Shown here: piece after piece, positions 3,889 to 37,345 of the stretch | How positions within the stretch are numbered: the first letter of the stretch is position 1 | How the letters are laid out: every line of letters starts with the position of its first letter | Sequence record: NC_054915.1 | Strand: one strand, 5' to 3' | Origin: Escherichia phage vB_EcoM_G8 | DNA: 64,000 bases | Position numbers and translations under genes: made by a program | The notes under the pieces: model-generated | The model's database searches: none | Told to the model about the DNA's origin: nothing | The model's input: only the letters and a program-made list of their open reading frames with translations

Positions 3889-4569
3889 TTATTTTAATGT
3901 TACGAAAGAAGAGTTGCGTGTTTCACGAATTAAAACTGATCCATCACGATTAATGTAATAAATTAAGCTAAATAAAGTTTGGTGTGCTGACGCATGCTCA
4001 AAACTAGTTGGGTGAGATTTCCAATCCGGAGTTTCAGCTATCCATTGATAAATCCACCAAGGAACAGTGCAGAATCCTGGATTTTTTCCAATCAGCTGAA
4101 GATTCGGACTAAAGTTTTCCGGAAGAGTAAATACAGACGGCTTTTCAGATTCAATAATCTCAGCTACAGCCTGTTCAAATTTTTCTTCAACAAAAGGAGT
4201 ATCTTCAATCAAAACTGAGGTATTTTCAGGAATTTTATCCGTTTCTACTACTTCAATTTTAATGTCAGATTTAACCGGAGAATCAATCAGAAGTGCTGCT
4301 TCTGGATTGACTTCTTCATCGTCATATTTTAATCCCTCTGCGGCATCAGCAGCATCAATTAAGTCTTTAATAGATAACCCATCAGTCTCTGGCATAGGTT
4401 CACTAGCGAGCTTCTGGAGGGCTTCTTCAATATCATTAACGATATTATCAAAAGATTTATTCTTTTTGACCTTTATACCAAACTGTTCAGCATATTCAGC
4501 TAATTTAGCTTTAGCTTCTTTGTTATCATCAAGAGCCTTCAGCTCTGCAATATAATCTTTATCTATCAT
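3889..4569 (-). CDS. inh: Inhibitor of prohead protease Inh
   Basis: 226-aa ORF, same size and position as T4 inh. Confidence 0.8.
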   Translation of the reverse strand: MIDKDYIAELKALDDNKEAKAKLAEYAEQFGIKVKKNKSFDNIVNDIEEALQKLASEPMPETDGLSIKDLIDAADAAEGLKYDDEEVNPEAALLIDSPVKSDIKIEVVETDKIPENTSVLIEDTPFVEEKFEQAVAEIIESEKPSVFTLPENFSPNLQLIGKNPGFCTVPWWIYQWIAETPDWKSHPTSFEHASAHQTLFSLIYYINRDGSVLIRETRNSSFVTLK

Positions 4570-4582
4570 AATATTTCCTCAG

Positions 4583-4590
4583 TATAAATA
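4583..4590 (+). promoter_or_regulatory. T4 late promoter box TATAAATA upstream of uvsW
   Basis: Exact TATAAATA about 30 nt upstream of the uvsW ATG. Confidence 0.5.
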
Positions 4591-4619
4591 TAGATATATT
4601 TATTACATGGTATTTAGAC

Positions 4620-6131
4620 ATGACTGACATTAAAGTACATTTTTATGATTTTAGTCACGTGAGAATTGATTGTGAAGAAAGTACATTTCATGAACTCCGT
4701 GATTTCTTTAGCTTTGAAGCTGATGGGTATCGTTTTAATCCGAAGTACAGATATGGCCACTGGGATGGACGAATCCGTCTTTTAGATTATAATCGACTTC
4801 TTCCATTCGGCTTAGTCGGGCAAATTAAAAAGTTCTGTGATAACTTTGGCTATAAAGCCTGGATTGACCCACAAATTAACGAAAAAGAAGAATTATCAAG
4901 AAAAGATTTTGATGAATGGCTTTCTAAATTAGAAATCTATTCAGGAAATAAAAGAATTGAACCACATTGGTATCAAAAAGATGCAGTGTTCGAAGGATTA
5001 GTTAATCGTCGTAGAATTCTTAATCTTCCAACATCCGCTGGTAAATCGTTAATTCAAGCTTTGCTTGCGCGATATTATTTGGAAAATTATGAAGGTAAAA
5101 TTCTTATCATTGTTCCAACAACTGCTCTGACAACTCAGATGGCTGATGACTTCGTCGACTATCGTTTATTCAGCCATGCAATGATAAAGAAAATTGGTGG
5201 CGGAGCATCAAAAGATGATAAATATAAAAATGATGCACCAGTCGTTGTTGGTACATGGCAAACTGTAGTAAAACAACCGAAAGAATGGTTCTCACAGTTT
5301 GGAATGATGATGAATGATGAATGCCATCTTGCTACAGGAAAAAGTATTTCATCTATCATATCAGGTTTAAATAACTGCATGTTCAAATTCGGTTTGTCTG
5401 GTTCATTACGTGATGGCAAAGCCAATATCATGCAGTATGTTGGAATGTTTGGTGAAATATTTAAGCCAGTAACGACTTCTAAGTTAATGGAAGATGGACA
5501 AGTAACTGAGCTAAAAATTAATAGTATTTTTCTTCGCTATCCCGATGAGTTCACTACTAAATTAAAGGGAAAAACTTATCAAGAAGAAATAAAAATTATT
5601 ACTGGGCTTAGTAAAAGAAATAAATGGATCGCTAAATTAGCTATTAAGCTTGCACAAAAAGATGAAAACGCTTTTGTCATGTTTAAACATGTATCGCATG
5701 GTAAAGCTATTTTCGATTTAATTAAAAATGAATACGATAAAGTTTATTACGTATCAGGGGAAGTTGATACCGAAACCCGCAACGTAATGAAAACTTTAGC
5801 TGAAAACGGTAAAGGAATAATTATAGTAGCGAGTTATGGTGTATTTTCTACTGGTATTTCAGTTAAAAATCTGCATCACGTTGTTTTAGCGCATGGTGTT
5901 AAATCAAAAATCATTGTATTACAAACAATCGGTCGTGTATTACGTAAGCATGGTTCTAAGACAATAGCAACGGTCTGGGACCTCATAGATGACGCGGGCG
6001 TAGTTTCTAAATCAAAAACATCTTCTAAAAAATACTCGCATTTAAACTATCTTTTAAAACATGGACTTGATCGTATTCAGCGTTATGCTGATGAAAAGTT
6101 TAATTATGTGATGAAAGAGGTTAAACTTTGA
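4620..6131 (+). CDS. uvsW: UvsW DNA/RNA helicase (SF2)
   Basis: 503-aa ORF, N-terminus MTDIKVHFYDFSHVRIDCEE..., Walker A-like PTSAGKS and DECH box (MMMNDECH). Confidence 0.92.
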   Translation: MTDIKVHFYDFSHVRIDCEESTFHELRDFFSFEADGYRFNPKYRYGHWDGRIRLLDYNRLLPFGLVGQIKKFCDNFGYKAWIDPQINEKEELSRKDFDEWLSKLEIYSGNKRIEPHWYQKDAVFEGLVNRRRILNLPTSAGKSLIQALLARYYLENYEGKILIIVPTTALTTQMADDFVDYRLFSHAMIKKIGGGASKDDKYKNDAPVVVGTWQTVVKQPKEWFSQFGMMMNDECHLATGKSISSIISGLNNCMFKFGLSGSLRDGKANIMQYVGMFGEIFKPVTTSKLMEDGQVTELKINSIFLRYPDEFTTKLKGKTYQEEIKIITGLSKRNKWIAKLAIKLAQKDENAFVMFKHVSHGKAIFDLIKNEYDKVYYVSGEVDTETRNVMKTLAENGKGIIIVASYGVFSTGISVKNLHHVVLAHGVKSKIIVLQTIGRVLRKHGSKTIATVWDLIDDAGVVSKSKTSSKKYSHLNYLLKHGLDRIQRYADEKFNYVMKEVKL

Positions 6132-6820
6132 ATTATAAATTAATATATGATAATTTAATTAATAGAGCCCAGAATCGGGCTCGCCTTAATGGATACACTG
6201 AAACACATCATATAATTCCTAGATGTATGGGTGGTACAAATGATAAGTGTAATTTAGTAGAACTAACGGCTGAAGAACATTTTATAGCCCATAAACTTTT
6301 AGCTAAAATTCATCCAAACCATTACGGTATAATTAAAGCTGTTATATGTATGGGGATGAATTCAAATACTCATGAAAGACACGTCAATAAATCTTACGCA
6401 TGGGAACGTCGTAAAATGGCAGAACTTCAATCCGGCGAAGGTAATCCATTTTACGGAAAACACCATACGGAAGAACATAAACAATATATGTCAAAACTCA
6501 TGAAAAGTCGTCCAATTACATGGGGAAATAAAATTAGTAAAACTAAAAGAATGAACCCAACGAAATGGACTGAAGAAGCTAAAAGATTACATTCAATCAA
6601 TCAATCGGGTAAAAATAACGGCATGTATGGAAGGAAACATTCCGCTAAATCTATTCAGAAAATTAAAGATAACATGCCAGATAATTCAGGAGCTAATAAC
6701 CCAGCTGCTAAACCTATAGAAGTAAATGGTGTTAAGTATAAATGTATGAAAGATGCTTCTAAAGCTACTGGATTATCAATGTACAAACTAAGAATACTTA
6801 GAAAAACAGTCAATTTATAA
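6128..6820 (+). CDS. HNH-family homing endonuclease with NUMOD3-like repeats; apparent TTG start overlapping the uvsW stop
   Basis: HNH motif ETHHIIPRCMGGTNDKCNLVELTAEEHFIAH; three repeats of the form G-x-x-N-P/G-x-YGK/R-x-H-x(3-4)-K; GAGG about 9 nt upstream of TTG. Confidence 0.78.
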   Translation: MNYKLIYDNLINRAQNRARLNGYTETHHIIPRCMGGTNDKCNLVELTAEEHFIAHKLLAKIHPNHYGIIKAVICMGMNSNTHERHVNKSYAWERRKMAELQSGEGNPFYGKHHTEEHKQYMSKLMKSRPITWGNKISKTKRMNPTKWTEEAKRLHSINQSGKNNGMYGRKHSAKSIQKIKDNMPDNSGANNPAAKPIEVNGVKYKCMKDASKATGLSMYKLRILRKTVNL

Positions 6821-6835
6821 GGGCTTCGGCCCTTT
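6821..6835 (+). terminator. Hairpin GGGCTTCGGCCC followed by TTT between the HNH ORF and uvsW.1
   Basis: Inverted repeat with UUCG loop read in sequence. Confidence 0.4.
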
Positions 6836-7076
6836 GGAGAAAAAGATGTTACTAAAATTTAAACAATTTCTTTATGAAGCTTCTATTGATGAATTTATGG
6901 GTAAAATTGCCTCTTGTCAAACATTAGAAGGTTTAGAAGAACTTGAAGCTTATTACAAGAAAAGAGTCAAAGAAACTGAATTAAAAGATACTGATGACAT
7001 CTCTGTGAGAGATGCTTTGGCAGGAAAAAGAGCTGAATTAGAAGATTCAGACGATGAAGTAGAAGAAAGCTTTTAA
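6834..7076 (+). CDS. uvsW.1: UvsW.1-like small acidic protein
   Basis: 80-aa ORF with RBS GGAGAAAAAG; in T4 the uvsW.1 product lies immediately after uvsW. Confidence 0.7.
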   Translation: MEKKMLLKFKQFLYEASIDEFMGKIASCQTLEGLEELEAYYKKRVKETELKDTDDISVRDALAGKRAELEDSDDEVEESF

Positions 7077-7132
7077 ATTAAAAAAAGGCCCAACCAAAAA
7101 GGAAGGGCCAAAACTATAGACTAAAGGTCACA

Positions 7133-7300
7133 CTATAGCAAAAGTTGTGTTTCATTTAATTGTTCTTCCGAACTTTCTGAAACTGGTAGTTCTTTAATGT
7201 AATTATAGCAAGGCCCAGGATGTACAGGACCTTTGTCTGTTTCAACAACCAATGCAGAATCGATTGGAGTTTTACAGACAACACAAATCTTATCTGACAT
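7133..7300 (-). CDS. Small Cys-containing hypothetical protein (55 aa; below the ORF-track length cutoff)
   Basis: Manual translation MSDKICVVCKTPIDSALVVETDKGPVHPGPCYNYIKELPVSESSEEQLNETQLLL; strong RBS GAGGAG upstream; coordinates +/-2. Confidence 0.45.
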   Translation of the reverse strand: MSDKICVVCKTPIDSALVVETDKGPVHPGPCYNYIKELPVSESSEEQLNETQLLL

Positions 7301-7328
7301 GATTGTCTCCTCTGAATTATATATCTAT

Positions 7329-7553
7329 TTATACAACTCTCATATGCATATCAATGCCCATATCTTTAGAATAAAAATATTCATCAAGATATCCGGCAAA
7401 TTTTCCTTTAATATAAAGGACATCTTCACCACACGGGTGGTCGGCCAGGATACGAATATCCTGACGCTTAAGATTATGCTTTTTCATTAAGAATTGAATT
7501 TCCGTTTCAAATTCTTCTTCATAATTAAAAGCATCATCAATGCTATATTTCAT
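7329..7553 (-). CDS. Conserved hypothetical protein upstream-region partner of uvsY
   Basis: 74-aa ORF whose start overlaps the uvsY stop (ATGA-type coupling). Confidence 0.6.
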   Translation of the reverse strand: MKYSIDDAFNYEEEFETEIQFLMKKHNLKRQDIRILADHPCGEDVLYIKGKFAGYLDEYFYSKDMGIDMHMRVV

Positions 7554-30938: not shown

Positions 30939-31614
30939 ACGCAAAAGATACATAAAAACGAATAGCTTCTAAGGCATTAATAACGTGCAAACAGAGGTAA
31001 AGAGATTTCATTAAAGCACGTTTAGCTTCGGCTTCTTGCTTAATAGCCCGGTTTAAACGAAAGTCGGCATCAGGAGATTCTTTAGCTAGTTCTACAAATT
31101 CTTTAGCATTTTCCCATTCACGGGTTTTAGTTAAAACATCATCATAATAGCGACCGATAGATTCAGCACGTTTCATAATAGCTTCATCTAATACAATCTC
31201 ATCAAATACCTTTGACGGATCAGTATAAAGATTTCGCATGATATGAGTATATGAACGACTGTGAATAGTTTCACTAAAAGTCCATGTAGCAACCCATGTA
31301 TCAAGGCTTGGGTCTGAAAGCAATGGCATAAGTACAGCAGACGGCGCACGACCTTGAATACTATCAAGTAATGATTGATACTTCAGATTATTAGTAAAAA
31401 TATTTTGTTGATACTGAGGAAGCTTATTAAACTGTGCAGCATCCATCATCAAGTTTACTTCTTCCGGACGCCAGAAAAACGAGAGCGAACGTTCAATAAG
31501 TTCTTCAAATACTCGATGCCGTTGAATATCATAACGCGCAATACCAAGACCTGAACCAAAAAACATAGGTTCTTTTAAAACATCGACCTGTTTAGTATTA
31601 AAAACTGTACTCAT
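30939..31614 (-). CDS. nrdB: Ribonucleotide reductase small subunit NrdB, exon 1
   Basis: 225-aa ORF ending ...LEAIRFYVSFA followed by in-frame TAA at intron start. Confidence 0.88.
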
Positions 31615-33206
31615 TATTTTGTCCTGTAAACTAAATTTCCACAGTCCCAGATTCTTCTAAGACCATTTGCATAACAATTTTCTACTTCAGTTATTGTATC
31701 ATCATAATTTTTAAGCTTGTTTTTAAGCTTATGTTTCATATAGCTTGAGCGGTGAAATACCTCTCCTTTATCGACGTACCAATAACATGGCTCAGAGATA
31801 TGACTAAATTCCATGACAGAGTCATAAACATTTGATAATGTACTGCACCATCTTCGATTGCCATAAGATAGACAATTAATTCCTTTTAATAATTTTGAGG
31901 CTCCTCCTACAACGCAAACCCCTAATTTTGAACACATCCTTAAAAGTTCATCACCCGAGCTATATCTAGATTTACCGATAGAAATAATTTGAACTAACTC
32001 ATTATTGTAATAAAGTCCTTTATACGTATGAGCTCCTGAGCAAAATCCTTGAAGATGATTCTTATTAATAAATTCTTTTGCCTCATCCTTATTAACAAAA
32101 CGCGCTTTGCATTTTCGGGCTGGTATTCTTTCTGATAATCCTAATTTATGCTTTATAATGGATTTCCAGATCTCTCTTTTTGTATCATCAATCCATTCAT
32201 TTTCGAAGATGTGAAGTAATTGAATTCCTTGTGCTTCACACATCTCTGTCTTCATCAAATGATAAGTTTCTTTAATTTTATCTGTTTCCTTTGACCCGCT
32301 AGAATGCCAATAAATTCCATCGTATTCTATAGCCAATTTTTTCTCAGGAATGTAAATATCTAATTCATACGGAGGAATAATTTTTCTAGTTTCTACGCAA
32401 TCAAATCCTAGATCTAAAATGAATTGCTCTATAGAACTTTGAGTATAATGAACGTCAATTAGTCCTTTGGATGAAAGAGCTCTATAAGCCGTCATCCGAG
32501 AACAATTTGCTAATTGTTGTAGTTCTTCTATAGAAATTTTGTAATTGATTTTATCTAGTATATCATGATTAATATGACCGTTATTTTTAATAGATTTTCC
32601 TATAGATGAATATAACGATGCCTTATATTCTTCAGTCCAATTTAATTTAGTCTTCTTAGATTTTTCGCGAGATTTTCTAGAATTCAGAATATCAACTGAT
32701 TTACCGTTTTCTATAACTTTTCTCGCTTCTTTCACGCTTTCTAATTGTGAATTATGCGTTACCCCATATCGTTCAATTAAAGTTTTTCTATTTTTATTTC
32801 TTGAAATTTTTTGATGAGTTGTTCCATATTTTTCTAAATAATTTTTGCGTTGAAGTTCAGACAAATATTTTTTATATTTTTCTTTTCCGCCAAAATTTGT
32901 ATCACGGCTTTGAATTCTCTTATCCGCGAAAAATATCCCTGCGCAGGATTTACTACATGTTGCTGGAAATACACGTTTCTTTGCTGTTTTCAGAGAAATG
33001 AAATTTCCACAAACTGCACATTTTAGATCGTTAATGTCAATGCCTTCCATAATTTGGAACACATTGAGCTTAAAATCTATTCCATCAGTTAGAAGAGCTT
33101 TATCTTCTTCTGTTAGTCTAGATTTAAGTTTTTCTTCTCCAAATGGAAGAAACTTTCCGTTTTTGTATATATTATCAAACATAGCGTTATTCTTAGTTAA
33201 CCACAT
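31614..33206 (-). CDS. Putative freestanding homing endonuclease, 530 aa: N-terminal Cys cluster, YG-x-xH repeats, HTH-like segment, Vsr/DUF559-like PD-(D/E)xK nuclease motif
   Basis: Motif YELDIYIPEKKLAIEYDGIYWHSS...GIQLLHIFENEW; no HNH motif; occupies the nrdA-nrdB interval where T4 carries mobE. Confidence 0.6.
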   Translation of the reverse strand: MWLTKNNAMFDNIYKNGKFLPFGEEKLKSRLTEEDKALLTDGIDFKLNVFQIMEGIDINDLKCAVCGNFISLKTAKKRVFPATCSKSCAGIFFADKRIQSRDTNFGGKEKYKKYLSELQRKNYLEKYGTTHQKISRNKNRKTLIERYGVTHNSQLESVKEARKVIENGKSVDILNSRKSREKSKKTKLNWTEEYKASLYSSIGKSIKNNGHINHDILDKINYKISIEELQQLANCSRMTAYRALSSKGLIDVHYTQSSIEQFILDLGFDCVETRKIIPPYELDIYIPEKKLAIEYDGIYWHSSGSKETDKIKETYHLMKTEMCEAQGIQLLHIFENEWIDDTKREIWKSIIKHKLGLSERIPARKCKARFVNKDEAKEFINKNHLQGFCSGAHTYKGLYYNNELVQIISIGKSRYSSGDELLRMCSKLGVCVVGGASKLLKGINCLSYGNRRWCSTLSNVYDSVMEFSHISEPCYWYVDKGEVFHRSSYMKHKLKNKLKNYDDTITEVENCYANGLRRIWDCGNLVYRTK

Positions 33207-36329: not shown

Positions 36330-37345
36330 CATTATGTTCAGATAAGGTCGTTAATCTTACCCCGGAATTATATCCAGCTGCATGTCACCATGCAGATCAG
36401 ACTATATCTCCAACTTGTTAAAGCAAGTTGTCTATCGTTTCGAGTCACTTGACCCTACTCCCCAAAGGGATAGTCGTTAGGCATTTATGTGGAACCAATT
36501 CCATTTATCAGATTTTACACGATAAGTAACTAATCCAGACGAAATTTTAAAATGTCTAGCTGCATCTGCTGCACAATCAAAAATAACCCCATCACATGAA
36601 ATCTTTTTAATATTACTAGGCTTTTTACCTTTCATCTTTTCTGATATTTTAGATTTAGTTATGTCTGAATGCTTATGATTAAAGAATGAATTATTTTCAC
36701 CTGAACGATTTCTGCATTTACTACAAGTATAAGCAGAAGTTTGTATGCGAACACCGCACTTACAAAACTTATGGGTTTCTGGATTCCAACGCCCGTTTTT
36801 ACTTCCGGGTTTACTGTAAAGAGCTTTCCGACCATCAGGTCCAAGTTTAAGCATCTTAGCTTTAACAGTTTCAGAACGTTTCTTAATAATTTCTTCTTTT
36901 AATGGATGCGTAGAACATGTATCACCAAACGTTGCATCAGCAATATTGTATCCATTAATTTTAGAATTAAGCTCTTTAATCCAAAAATTTTCTCGTTCAA
37001 TAATCAAATCTTTCTCATATGGAATTTCTTCCAAAATAGAACATTCAAACACATTACCATGTTTGTTAAAAGACCTCTGAAGTTTTATAGAAGAATGGCA
37101 TCCTTTTTCTAAATCTTTAAAATGCCTCTTCCATCTCTTTTCAAAATCTTTAGCACTTCCTACATATACTTTATTGTTTAAAGTATTTTTAATCTGATAA
37201 ATTCCGCTTTTCATAAATACCTCTTTAAATATAGAAGTATTTATTAAAGGGCAGTCCTACAATTTAGCACGGGATTGTCTACTAGAGAGGTTCCCCGTTT
37301 AGATAGATTACAAGTATAAGTCACCTTATACTCAGGCCTCAATTA
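36330..37345 (-). other. td group I intron (1016 nt)
   Basis: Minus strand after exon 1 reads TAATTGAGGCCTGAGTATAAGGTGA..., the 5' end of the T4 td intron as I remember it; length matches. Confidence 0.9.
36477..37214 (-). CDS. Intron-encoded GIY-YIG homing endonuclease I-TevI (245 aa)
   Basis: N-terminus MKSGIYQIKNTLNNKVYVGSAKDFEKRWKRH (GIY...YVG motif); 245 aa; inside td intron. Confidence 0.93.
   Translation of the reverse strand: MKSGIYQIKNTLNNKVYVGSAKDFEKRWKRHFKDLEKGCHSSIKLQRSFNKHGNVFECSILEEIPYEKDLIIERENFWIKELNSKINGYNIADATFGDTCSTHPLKEEIIKKRSETVKAKMLKLGPDGRKALYSKPGSKNGRWNPETHKFCKCGVRIQTSAYTCSKCRNRSGENNSFFNHKHSDITKSKISEKMKGKKPSNIKKISCDGVIFDCAADAARHFKISSGLVTYRVKSDKWNWFHINA

Follow-up and report, generated by a model that had tools for sequence, protein, structure and literature searches.

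T4 MobE, a free-standing HNH homing endonuclease encoded between nrdA and nrdB (Wilson & Edgell 2009, PMC2790892), nicks the non-coding strand of T2 nrdB in an HNH motif-dependent manner, shows super-Mendelian inheritance in mixed infections (PMC2790892) and is, with MobA, one of only two among T4's five Mob endonucleases for which there are activity data (review table, PMC2988022). In Aeromonas phage Aeh1, mobE interrupts a coding sequence instead of lying between two genes: it splits nrdA at a functionally critical region, so that two polypeptides must reassemble, and adds coding sequence to the new ends of its host gene (PMC2988022, PMC3045599). T4 SegE, also free-standing, is a GIY-YIG double-strand cutter that is encoded between inh and uvsW and targets uvsW (Table 1 of PMC2988022), a gene that in T4 is separate from uvsW.1 (PMC1524935). 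The intron-encoded I-HmuI, an HNH nickase (PMC2988022), and I-TevI, whose catalytic domain is GIY-YIG, have a 'beads-on-a-string' design with an N-terminal nuclease, NUMOD3-type minor-groove helices and a C-terminal helix-turn-helix.

The window (the whole 64,000-nt stretch of Escherichia phage vB_EcoM_G8 DNA analysed, record NC_054915.1) carries a 230-aa ORF at the junction of uvsW and uvsW.1 that shares features with each of these systems. As in MobE, HNH and NUMOD3-type repeats occur together, the gene is promoterless, its start codon shares nucleotides with the stop codon of the essential gene before it (UAAUGA for mobE, UUUGA here), a GC-rich hairpin lies ~30–40 nt into the ORF (MobE precedent, PMC2790892), and presence among T-even phages is sporadic. 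Unlike MobE, its host junction is uvsW/uvsW.1 rather than nrdA/nrdB, its start is TTG rather than AUG, its hairpin has no U tract, and the insert lies within the last codons of the upstream gene, which are re-coded. Insertion within coding sequence and the addition of coding sequence to the host gene are shared with Aeh1 mobE but, in contrast to the split nrdA, UvsW here stays in one piece with only its last four residues replaced (TVNL to EVKL). With SegE the ORF has in common its host gene and a localised diverged patch beside the endonuclease gene, although segE adjoins the opposite end of uvsW and the window lacks it. It has the modular design of I-HmuI and I-TevI but is not intron-encoded. 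Separately, the nrdA/nrdB junction of the window holds a 530-aa Hef-like gene instead of mobE. We put at roughly 0.8 the probability that the ORF encodes a free-standing HNH homing endonuclease that is functional, belongs to the T4 Mob (MobE-like) clade and is specialised for the uvsW 3' end.

Structure of the insertion at the uvsW 3' end

The features of the locus are as follows.

4583..4590, + strand: T4-type late promoter consensus TATAAATA, ~30 nt upstream of uvsW
4620..6131, + strand: uvsW helicase, the host gene, 503 aa (Pfam UvsW_N 5.2e-43, ResIII, DEAD, Helicase_C)
5967..6116, + strand: uvsW 3' tract in which carrier and empty alleles differ (putative co-conversion tract and target region)
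6117..6805, + strand: 689-bp insert, by comparison with the T4-type empty site (alignment boundaries)
6117..6131, + strand: re-coded uvsW tail GAG GTT AAA CTT TGA, EVKL* in place of native TVNL*
6128..6820, + strand: homing endonuclease ORF, 230 aa, MobE paralogue (PHROG 655 'homing endonuclease' 3.9e-60; MobE homology)
6165..6182, + strand: GC-rich hairpin GAGCCC-AGAATC-GGGCTC, codons 13–18, located where T4 mobE has its internal terminator hairpin
6194..6301, + strand: HNH (beta-beta-alpha-metal) catalytic core, aa 23–58, with invariant H28, N42, H51 and H55
6407..6502, + strand: NUMOD3 repeat 1, aa 94–125 (best Pfam NUMOD3 stretch, aa 94–122)
6605..6673, + strand: NUMOD3 repeat 2, aa 160–182 (second Pfam NUMOD3 stretch; placed by the motif read in the sequence)
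6686..6808, + strand: linker and I-TevI-type C-terminal helix-turn-helix DNA-binding subdomain, aa 187–227 (profile against 1I3J)
6803..6820, + strand: displaced native uvsW tail AAA ACA GTC AAT TTA TAA (KTVNL*), forming the endonuclease's last codons and stop
6821..6845, + strand: native uvsW/uvsW.1 spacer, with UUCG-tetraloop hairpin GGGCTTCGGCCC (6821–6832) and Shine-Dalgarno GGAG (6836–6839)
6846..7076, + strand: uvsW.1, 76 aa (Pfam UvsW-1 1.5e-30)

The initial annotation described an endonuclease gene inserted between uvsW and uvsW.1. Alignment of this junction across T-even phages, which it had proposed for defining the insertion and a putative target, bears out the junction but not the spacer: the insert (6117–6805, with a boundary movable within shared GAAA(A) microhomology) lies within uvsW, five codons before the stop, and the putative target is the uvsW 3' end. 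Empty-site phages align to the window up to 6116 and then stop, and when carriers are aligned to the empty site the match resumes at the last five uvsW codons, the displaced tail being identical at 17 of 18 nt to that of T4-type empty sites. The gene order is uvsW, endonuclease, uvsW.1, with the endonuclease as the middle cistron and 25 nt between its stop and the uvsW.1 start. Because the endonuclease ends on the displaced native tail, the native spacer, which is the same as in T4, and the ribosome-binding site of uvsW.1 are left untouched.

At the upstream end, the re-coded uvsW tail supplies the endonuclease gene with both a Shine-Dalgarno GAGG (6117–6120, 7 nt before the TTG) and, together with its stop, the TTG start (6128–6130, overlapping the uvsW TGA at 6129–6131); the annotation had read both, placing the GAGG at ~9 nt. 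This TTG is the first start downstream of an in-frame TAA (6122–6124), and the next in-frame ATG is codon 34, within the HNH motif. Comparison supports the TTG, because the starts of orthologues match: those in other genera use TTG, GTG or ATG at the equivalent position, the overlap with the uvsW stop is 4 nt in all five lineages (TTGA, TTGA, GTGA, ATGA, ATGA), and directly after the start comes a conserved N-terminal NY(K/Q)K(I)Y. Moreover, uvsW tails bearing a Shine-Dalgarno pair with TTG or GTG starts and those without one pair with ATG, Proteus phage PM2 having an identical layout of GAGG, 7 nt and GTGA. Fusion of UvsW to the endonuclease through frameshifting was rejected, since the TAA leaves a single codon before the TTG and no slippery heptamer was found on inspection. 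With a dN/dS of 0.05 (21 synonymous and five non-synonymous differences) and 73 intact full-length homologues, the 230-aa ORF is far beyond chance.

We also considered whether the uvsW/uvsW.1 split was itself created by an ancestral insertion that left genes in pieces, and rejected it: a phmmer search with UvsW.1 of 1.84 billion representative proteins gave 26 matches, none of them a helicase-length fusion. The strong matches are all 40–145 aa long; among weak ones, five are proteins of 287–295 aa with the domain at the N-terminus, and one (E 6.5e-5) is a 523-aa protein matched near its N-terminus.

Domain composition and expression signals

The HNH motif first read in the ORF (ETHHIIPRCMGGTNDKCNLVELTAEEHFIAH) is present, and its four catalytic-core residues are invariant in a 60-sequence alignment with relatives down to ~30% identity. 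A profile search, suggested earlier for HNH and NUMOD3, placed NUMOD3 well above its cutoff (E 7.6e-14, 51.8 bits vs 20.4, in two stretches), whereas Pfam HNH (PF01844) stayed below threshold for the protein alone (16.2 bits vs a cutoff of 21.4, E 0.012). The HNH assignment is nonetheless significant at the level of the family and through MobE homology: Pfam HNH is found at E ≤ 0.01 in 45 of the 60 relatives (best 2.3e-6), and a family profile matches the HNH domains of McrA (E 1.6e-4; aligned motif HHVIP...GG...N...L...H) and of a group II intron maturase (E 0.003). In the predicted model, the core comprises strands 25–28 and 43–46 and helix 48–61, with pLDDT ~97.

Three NUMOD3-like repeats had been proposed. 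Two hold, the second aligning to the minor-groove helix region of I-TevI, and the supposed third corresponds instead to the linker and the I-TevI-type helix-turn-helix. The C-terminal 60–95 aa align to the I-TevI DNA-binding domain in structure 1I3J (profile E 5.4e-10; phmmer E 0.006), and residues 197–227 are predicted to fold as strand-strand-helix-helix. PDB searches with the endonuclease returned no match to I-HmuI. In BLASTP, the protein is 42% identical to T4 MobE over 181 aa (E 8e-34), rising to ~75% in the N-terminal catalytic 60 aa, and its DNA is 72% identical to mobE over the first ~190 nt. On these alignments it is a MobE paralogue belonging to the T4 Mob (MobE-like) clade, and since its C-terminal DNA-binding region has no similarity to MobE past ~aa 170, its target would be a different one.

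The late promoter consensus TATAAATA upstream of uvsW is the only one on the + strand up to the end of uvsW.1, and the endonuclease ORF has no late-promoter consensus of its own; we infer that uvsW, the endonuclease gene and uvsW.1 are carried on one late transcript from TATAAATA. A late-promoter-like TATAAATT just within the ORF (6134–6141) is absent from orthologues and was taken as chance. Translation of the endonuclease may be weak, as first suggested. In the 6165–6182 hairpin, 41 of 42 cells are paired across six lineages, with 2–4 pair types per position, a count (tallied by script) that is inflated because the registers were picked by folding. The lack of a U tract makes a MobE-like terminator role for this hairpin doubtful.

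Distribution of the gene and divergence of the uvsW 3' tract

The distribution of the gene was surveyed in the GenBank phage collection, since IMG/VR gave few T-even relatives (13 loci). Among 497 Tequatrovirus-level relatives, 47 (~9.5%) carry the endonuclease gene and 450 have an uninterrupted site. T6 is a carrier, and T2 and T4 have the empty site, the absence from T4 asserted in the initial annotation being found in both the reference record and resequenced T4. Of the two outcomes named there as refutations, the same ORF in T4 is excluded, and a lack of significant HNH homology is countered by the family-level and MobE matches. Its statement that segE is lacking here agrees with the 50 bp between inh (ending at 4569) and uvsW (starting at 4620), and the endonuclease repertoire does differ from that of T4, which, like T6 and PST, has segE. 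The endonuclease gene occurs on segE-positive (T6, PST) and segE-negative (window, ZN18) backgrounds, and T6 and PST have both genes, one at either end of uvsW.

Beyond these relatives, at least four other lineages have intact orthologues at this junction (53–70% identity). All 73 full-length homologues are single-piece ORFs at the helicase junction, free of frameshift or truncation, nearly all of the homologues listed (73 intact) overlap a helicase annotation, and they occur in Tequatrovirus, Gaprivervirus, Jiaodavirus-like Klebsiella phages, Bragavirus and a Morganella phage. The gene is already in databases and is not new there: it is annotated as a homing endonuclease in T6, PST and ~45 other Tequatrovirus records; phages with this annotation include ACG-C40 and HY03, and Yersinia phage PST bears the label 'mobD/MobE'. 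A search of mostly open-access literature found no description of it.

Carriers and empty-site phages differ also in the adjoining part of uvsW. At 6064–6116 there are nine substitutions in 53 nt (eight synonymous and one Ile/Leu), all endonuclease-linked, and the carrier tract is present at ≥95% identity in 47/47 carriers and 0/450 empty-site records. A variable patch at 6012–6056 was rejected as a strictly linked marker, as it occurs in the endonuclease-less phage OES_C-2. In three independent within-genus comparisons of carrier with empty alleles, identity is 79–80% over the last 75 nt of uvsW (mostly synonymous differences), 86–93% over the next 300 nt and 97–98% over the rest of the gene; in the downstream flank it is 97–100%. 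UPEC01 is a mosaic of a VR20-like backbone and a VR7-like 3' tract. The SegE/uvsW 5' system, which served as a positive control, has a similar diverged patch within uvsW (4620–4760, 14–17 mismatches per 60 nt) that follows segE presence. The codon after GAR in the uvsW 3' tract is AAA in seven of eight empty lineages and non-AAA in five of five carrier lineages, an association drawn from ~13 non-independent lineages; the Lys codon in GAA AAA TT is on this basis a candidate immunity position. The diverged upstream tract could, instead of immunity changes, be hitch-hiking donor sequence.

Proposed mechanism, alternative readings and significance

By analogy with MobE and from the polymorphism patterns, the protein is probably an active or recently active endonuclease, a nickase that targets the uvsW 3' end. 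It would be made late and in small amounts, through translational coupling to UvsW on the uvsW late transcript, with the conserved 5' hairpin perhaps lowering expression further. When a carrier and an endonuclease-less relative infect the same cell, the conserved stretch of the uvsW 3' end that encodes ...RIQRYADEKFNYVMK would be bound through the NUMOD3 repeats and helix-turn-helix and nicked by the HNH domain, as nrdB is by MobE. The recipient would then acquire the donor uvsW 3' tract together with the endonuclease gene through recombination-dependent repair. Carriers would be immune because the insert splits the site and synonymous changes are present, and the Lys codon of GAA AAA TT, changed in every carrier lineage, may be part of this immunity. 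Exact flanking repeats, which some lineages have and which are 16–19 nt long in UPEC01 and PM2, may permit precise loss, leaving resistant empty sites such as that of Gaprivervirus VR7.

The gene might instead be a domesticated resident, kept for the benefit of the phage rather than as a purely selfish element, which we consider unlikely. Such a protein could exclude co-infecting relatives (interference competition), or its nicks could feed late UvsW/UvsX/UvsY recombination-dependent replication. The intactness of 73/73 full-length copies in five lineages and the dN/dS of 0.05 fit this idea, although purifying selection is also expected for an element that needs to keep homing. Co-option is also favoured by the embedding of the gene in the uvsW operon with translational coupling kept on both sides, and by an orthologue divergence (53–70%) of the same order as that of UvsW (~58–75%), compatible with long residence; PMC11620839 gives a precedent for an intron endonuclease that aids phage competition. 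Yet only ~9.5% of close relatives carry the gene, T4 and T2 do well without it, the surrounding recombination mosaic is of the kind that selfish homing produces, and any functional link to UvsW is hypothetical. It is similarly improbable that the uvsW late operon has stably taken in the element as its third cistron and that at least five Straboviridae lineages (three classified in different genera) keep it intact since its nick serves the phage. Were this so, the re-coded tail, duplicated tail and covarying 5' hairpin would be a conserved expression-control cassette, and carrier, sensitive empty and resistant empty (VR7) isolates would represent a complete invasion-loss cycle.

Quite unlikely, and slightly more so, is an inactive relic of a single invasion that has lost cutting and persists as a passenger through vertical descent and ordinary recombination. 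Several T4 mob genes are indeed listed as 'ND' for activity in Table 1 of PMC2988022, and Pfam HNH is sub-threshold for this protein alone, but its catalytic residues are invariant, none of 73 records has a frameshift or truncation, the dN/dS is low (0.05), and the localised foreign tract recurs in three genera. The weak TTG start, which might also point to decay, is compensated by the Shine-Dalgarno of the re-coded tail.

An intron-encoded endonuclease, with uvsW and uvsW.1 as exons of one gene, can be dismissed as extremely improbable: it is suggested by the label 'group I intron endonuclease' in GenBank records G28, G2540-3 and UPEC01 and by a sub-threshold match to TIGR01453 'group I intron endonuclease' (30 bits vs 56) that arises because the NUMOD3/helix-turn-helix domain is shared. 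An Rfam search of 4400–7500, however, found no group I intron or other family even at E ≤ 1, and an intron core would not fit, as the ORF takes up the insert between the uvsW stop and a point 25 nt short of uvsW.1. In T4, moreover, uvsW is distinct from uvsW.1 (PMC1524935), and helicase-fused UvsW.1 is absent among the 1.84 billion representatives. With no intron at 4400–7500 and a reading frame of its own that overlaps the uvsW stop, the endonuclease is free-standing, as originally proposed.

The preferred reading, a functional MobE-like homing endonuclease specialised for the uvsW 3' end, leaves the general view of phage biology unchanged: this is an ordinary kind of phage parasite and an additional member of the known T-even Mob endonuclease set. 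It does explain the T6-type annotation of uvsW 'A' and 'B' genes with an ORF between them, which arises because the endonuclease gene is inserted, and it makes the labels 'mobD', 'group I intron endonuclease' and 'GIY-YIG' on this gene wrong. New details are the position of the insert within uvsW, the re-coded and displaced tails, the orthologues at the same junction, the uvsW divergence in three genera and the dN/dS. The locus offers an unusually clean natural experiment, a single genus containing both 47 carriers and 450 empty sites and four further lineages having diverged orthologues, and the carrier/empty contrast points to a putative target in the last ~75 nt of uvsW. It also illustrates harmless insertion within a coding sequence, in which the gene tail brought by the element both replaces that of the interrupted gene and serves as the element's translation start.

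Identity and layout of the encoded protein

The endonuclease ORF and its immediate neighbours occupy the following positions in the window:

4620–6131, + strand: uvsW (Pfam UvsW_N, 5.2e-43)
6117–6120, + strand: GAGG, Shine-Dalgarno (SD) sequence ahead of the endonuclease start
6128–6820, + strand: endonuclease ORF, 230 aa
6846–7076, + strand: uvsW.1 (Pfam UvsW-1, 1.5e-30)

The ORF opens with TTG (6128–6130), which shares bases with the TGA stop of uvsW (6129–6131) and has an in-frame TAA one codon before it (6122–6124). ORF, start, overlap and GAGG were all found where the initial annotation had placed them, and its statement that segE is absent between inh and uvsW was confirmed, inh ending at 4569 and leaving a gap of 50 bp. 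The same annotation had proposed an HNH motif followed by three NUMOD3-like repeats. Pfam recovered two NUMOD3 stretches, well over threshold (7.6e-14), the third proposed repeat corresponding instead to a linker and helix-turn-helix, and HNH stayed under the gathering score for the ORF by itself (16.2 vs 21.4 bits) but was matched by 45 of 60 relatives. In an alignment of the 60 relatives' sequences, H28, N42, H51 and H55 are invariant. The ORF matched PHROGs family 655 ‘homing endonuclease’ (3.9e-60) and T4 MobE (42% identity, E 8e-34; ~75% over the first 60 residues), an HNH-dependent nicking homing endonuclease by experiment (PMC2790892). Against solved structures, the family profile matched McrA in its HNH domain (1.6e-4) and I-TevI in its DNA-binding domain (5.4e-10), and the AlphaFold model (pLDDT 89) has strand-strand-helix at 25–61 and strand-strand-helix-helix at 197–227. 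Taken together, these results indicate a layout of HNH, two NUMOD3 repeats and an I-TevI-type helix-turn-helix. Judged by its sequence, the ORF is a free-standing HNH homing endonuclease of the MobE clade whose DNA-binding tail and site are its own; it has every family feature that sequence can test, nicking and biased inheritance being predicted only. The DNA of the HNH motif (6197–6258, + strand) is 93.5% identical to T4 mobB over 62 nt, far above the rest of the gene; either conversion among the paralogous mob genes or strong constraint on the motif may account for this.

Anatomy of the insertion and its distribution

Empty sites read ...TAC GTA ATG AAA / ACA GTT AAT TTA TAA GGGCTTCGGCCC... 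(slash, insertion point), whereas the window reads ...TAT GTG ATG AAA [GAG GTT AAA CTT TGA ... endonuclease ... AGA AAA] ACA GTC AAT TTA TAA GGGCTTCGGCCC. Aligned to the window, empty-site phages match only as far as 6116, and carriers aligned to the empty site match again from the last five uvsW codons onwards, so that the alignments indicate an insert of 689 bp (6117–6805) lying inside uvsW, five codons ahead of its stop. The insertion between uvsW and uvsW.1 described initially is upheld as to the junction, although the insert does not lie in the spacer. The element supplies a replacement UvsW tail, EVKL* in place of TVNL*, whose codons make both the GAGG and, with TGA, the TTG start. The endonuclease frame runs through the displaced native uvsW tail and ends on the native stop, so that uvsW.1 keeps its native hairpin, SD and ATG.

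We identified 73 full-length homologues by tblastn, each single-piece and, among the matches listed, nearly all overlapping a helicase annotation:

Homologues of the endonuclease by identity
≥95%, n=47: Tequatrovirus
60–80%, n=14: Klebsiella Jiaodavirus-like phages, Salmonella PSE-D1, Citrobacter NM4.3
<60%, n=12: Gaprivervirus UPEC01, SP18, PSD2002; Proteus PM2; Morganella Rgz1

All five loci inspected are at the uvsW–uvsW.1 junction, and a 4-nt overlap of start and uvsW stop recurs in 5/5 lineages (TTGA, TTGA, GTGA, ATGA, ATGA). In the TTG and GTG lineages the uvsW tail contains an SD (GAGG, AGGTGG); the two lineages whose tails lack one start with ATG. Exact direct repeats of the uvsW tail flank the gene in UPEC01 (19 nt) and PM2 (16 nt); the window's two copies differ, the left resembling the PM2 tail, and in Roth21 the duplication is limited to the ATGA junction. 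In PM2 (L005, 745–1620), a 291-aa ‘hypothetical protein’ ORF also splits uvsW into two helicase ORFs and is a second insertion in that gene.

A census with a 291-nt empty-site probe matched 497 records at ≥95% identity, 450 of them uninterrupted and 47 interrupted, the same 47 having both the uvsW 3' tract and the endonuclease gene. T4 has no ORF at this position, and resequenced T4, like T2, has an uninterrupted uvsW end, bearing out the initial view that T4 lacks such an endonuclease; the T4 RefSeq record still retains a known sequencing error, which gives a fused uvsW of 587 aa (PMC1524935; PMC6486255). Insertion as the origin of the uvsW/uvsW.1 split was not supported, since UvsW.1 was never fused to a helicase among 1.84 billion representative proteins; five weak matches (P0142–P0146, E ~1e-4; 287–295 aa) have a UvsW.1-like domain at the N-terminus.

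Co-conversion signature and predicted target

The gene occurs in both segE+ (T6, PST) and segE− (window, ZN18) backgrounds. Across three genera, uvsW identity between carriers and empty relatives is 79–80% over the last 75 nt, where changes are nearly all synonymous, 86–93% over the next 300 nt and 97–98% over the remainder, compared with 97–100% directly downstream of the insert. UPEC01 is a mosaic, with a VR7-like uvsW 3' tract within a VR20-like backbone on both sides, a pattern that homing with co-conversion would produce. VR7 (L106, NC_014792.1, 1400–1560) has no endonuclease, yet its 3' tract is of the carrier type, 97% identical to that of UPEC01 (L004; against 80% for VR20, L107), and the 19-nt repeat occurs once; it looks like either precise loss by recombination between flanking repeats or a resistant ancestor. 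One position, the Lys codon in GAR AAA TTY, splits all carrier lineages (AAG, CGT, CAA or CAG in 5/5) from nearly all empty ones (AAA in 7/8, the exception being VR7). Since the foreign tract lies only upstream of the insert, and almost all lineages examined conserve its protein sequence, RIQRYADEKFNYVMK (the exact motif is missing in three of the most distant loci), the most likely target is predicted to be either the junction or the last ~75–150 nt of uvsW. The uvsW 5' end (4620–4760, + strand) has two haplotypes (14–17 mismatches per 60 nt) that track segE, one in segE+ T4, T6 and PST and the other in the window and a segE-less relative. This patch matches the target of SegE, which is uvsW (PMC2988022), and serves as an internal control for the 3' patch.

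Selection, expression and genomic context

Endonuclease copies of the window and ZN18 differ by 21 synonymous and five non-synonymous changes (dN/dS 0.05), and none of the 73 full-length homologues is disrupted, so selection acts on the protein. That the gene serves a co-opted function is improbable, that it is an inactive relic slightly more so, and an intron-encoded origin is very improbable, no intron having been found at the locus. As the sole T4-type late promoter consensus on the + strand of the locus lies upstream of uvsW (4583–4590), the gene, like mobE (PMC2790892), seems to lack a promoter of its own, and its expression would come late, together with that of uvsW. It also resembles T4 mobE in that a GC-rich hairpin (6165–6182) sits where mobE has its internal terminator hairpin. 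The hairpin occurs, in differing sequence, in 5/5 uvsW-junction lineages and mobE, with 41/42 cells paired and 2–4 pair types per position (registers picked by folding, which favours pairing in this tally), compared with 3.3/7 pairs if one phage's arm is matched with another's. Because the hairpin is missing in most of the distant relatives and the window copy has no U tract, its role may be attenuation, translational throttling or RNA processing.

Elsewhere in the window, a 530-aa ORF (31614–33206, − strand; PHROG 3339 ‘homing endonuclease’, 4.7e-152) fills the nrdA/nrdB junction (nrdA end 33226, nrdB start 31614), T4's mobE position; it has no similarity to MobE and appears to be the Hef-type gene published as replacing mobE. 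A 245-aa GIY-YIG ORF (36477–37214, − strand), whose C-terminal half nearly exactly matches the I-TevI DNA-binding domain sequence, is flanked by two thymidylate synthase-like ORFs, and so was read, by eye, as I-TevI in a td intron carried by this phage. HY03 (L105, 2000–2124), G2540-3 and F26 have ~97 bp more than the window between uvsY.-2 and uvsY.-1, unrelated to the endonuclease.

Phage T6, AV121 and Pu-Krd phages are ~99% identical to the window around the endonuclease locus. The ORF is labelled ‘homing endonuclease’ in T6, ‘mobD / MobE’ in Yersinia phage PST and ‘group I intron endonuclease’ or ‘hypothetical protein’ in others; ‘mobD’, ‘GIY-YIG homing endonuclease’ and ‘group I intron endonuclease’ are annotation errors in various records. 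The T6 record (L001, AP018814.1; 1404–2021) wrongly names segE ‘tail tape measure protein’ and calls uvsY ‘ribonucleotide reductase large subunit’. Our literature search found no paper describing the uvsW-junction gene. It is an ordinary finding, a gene annotated in GenBank beforehand and uncharacterised, to which the analysis adds the exact anatomy of the insertion, site fidelity across lineages, a co-conversion signature replicated in three genera and a prediction of the target that can be tested.
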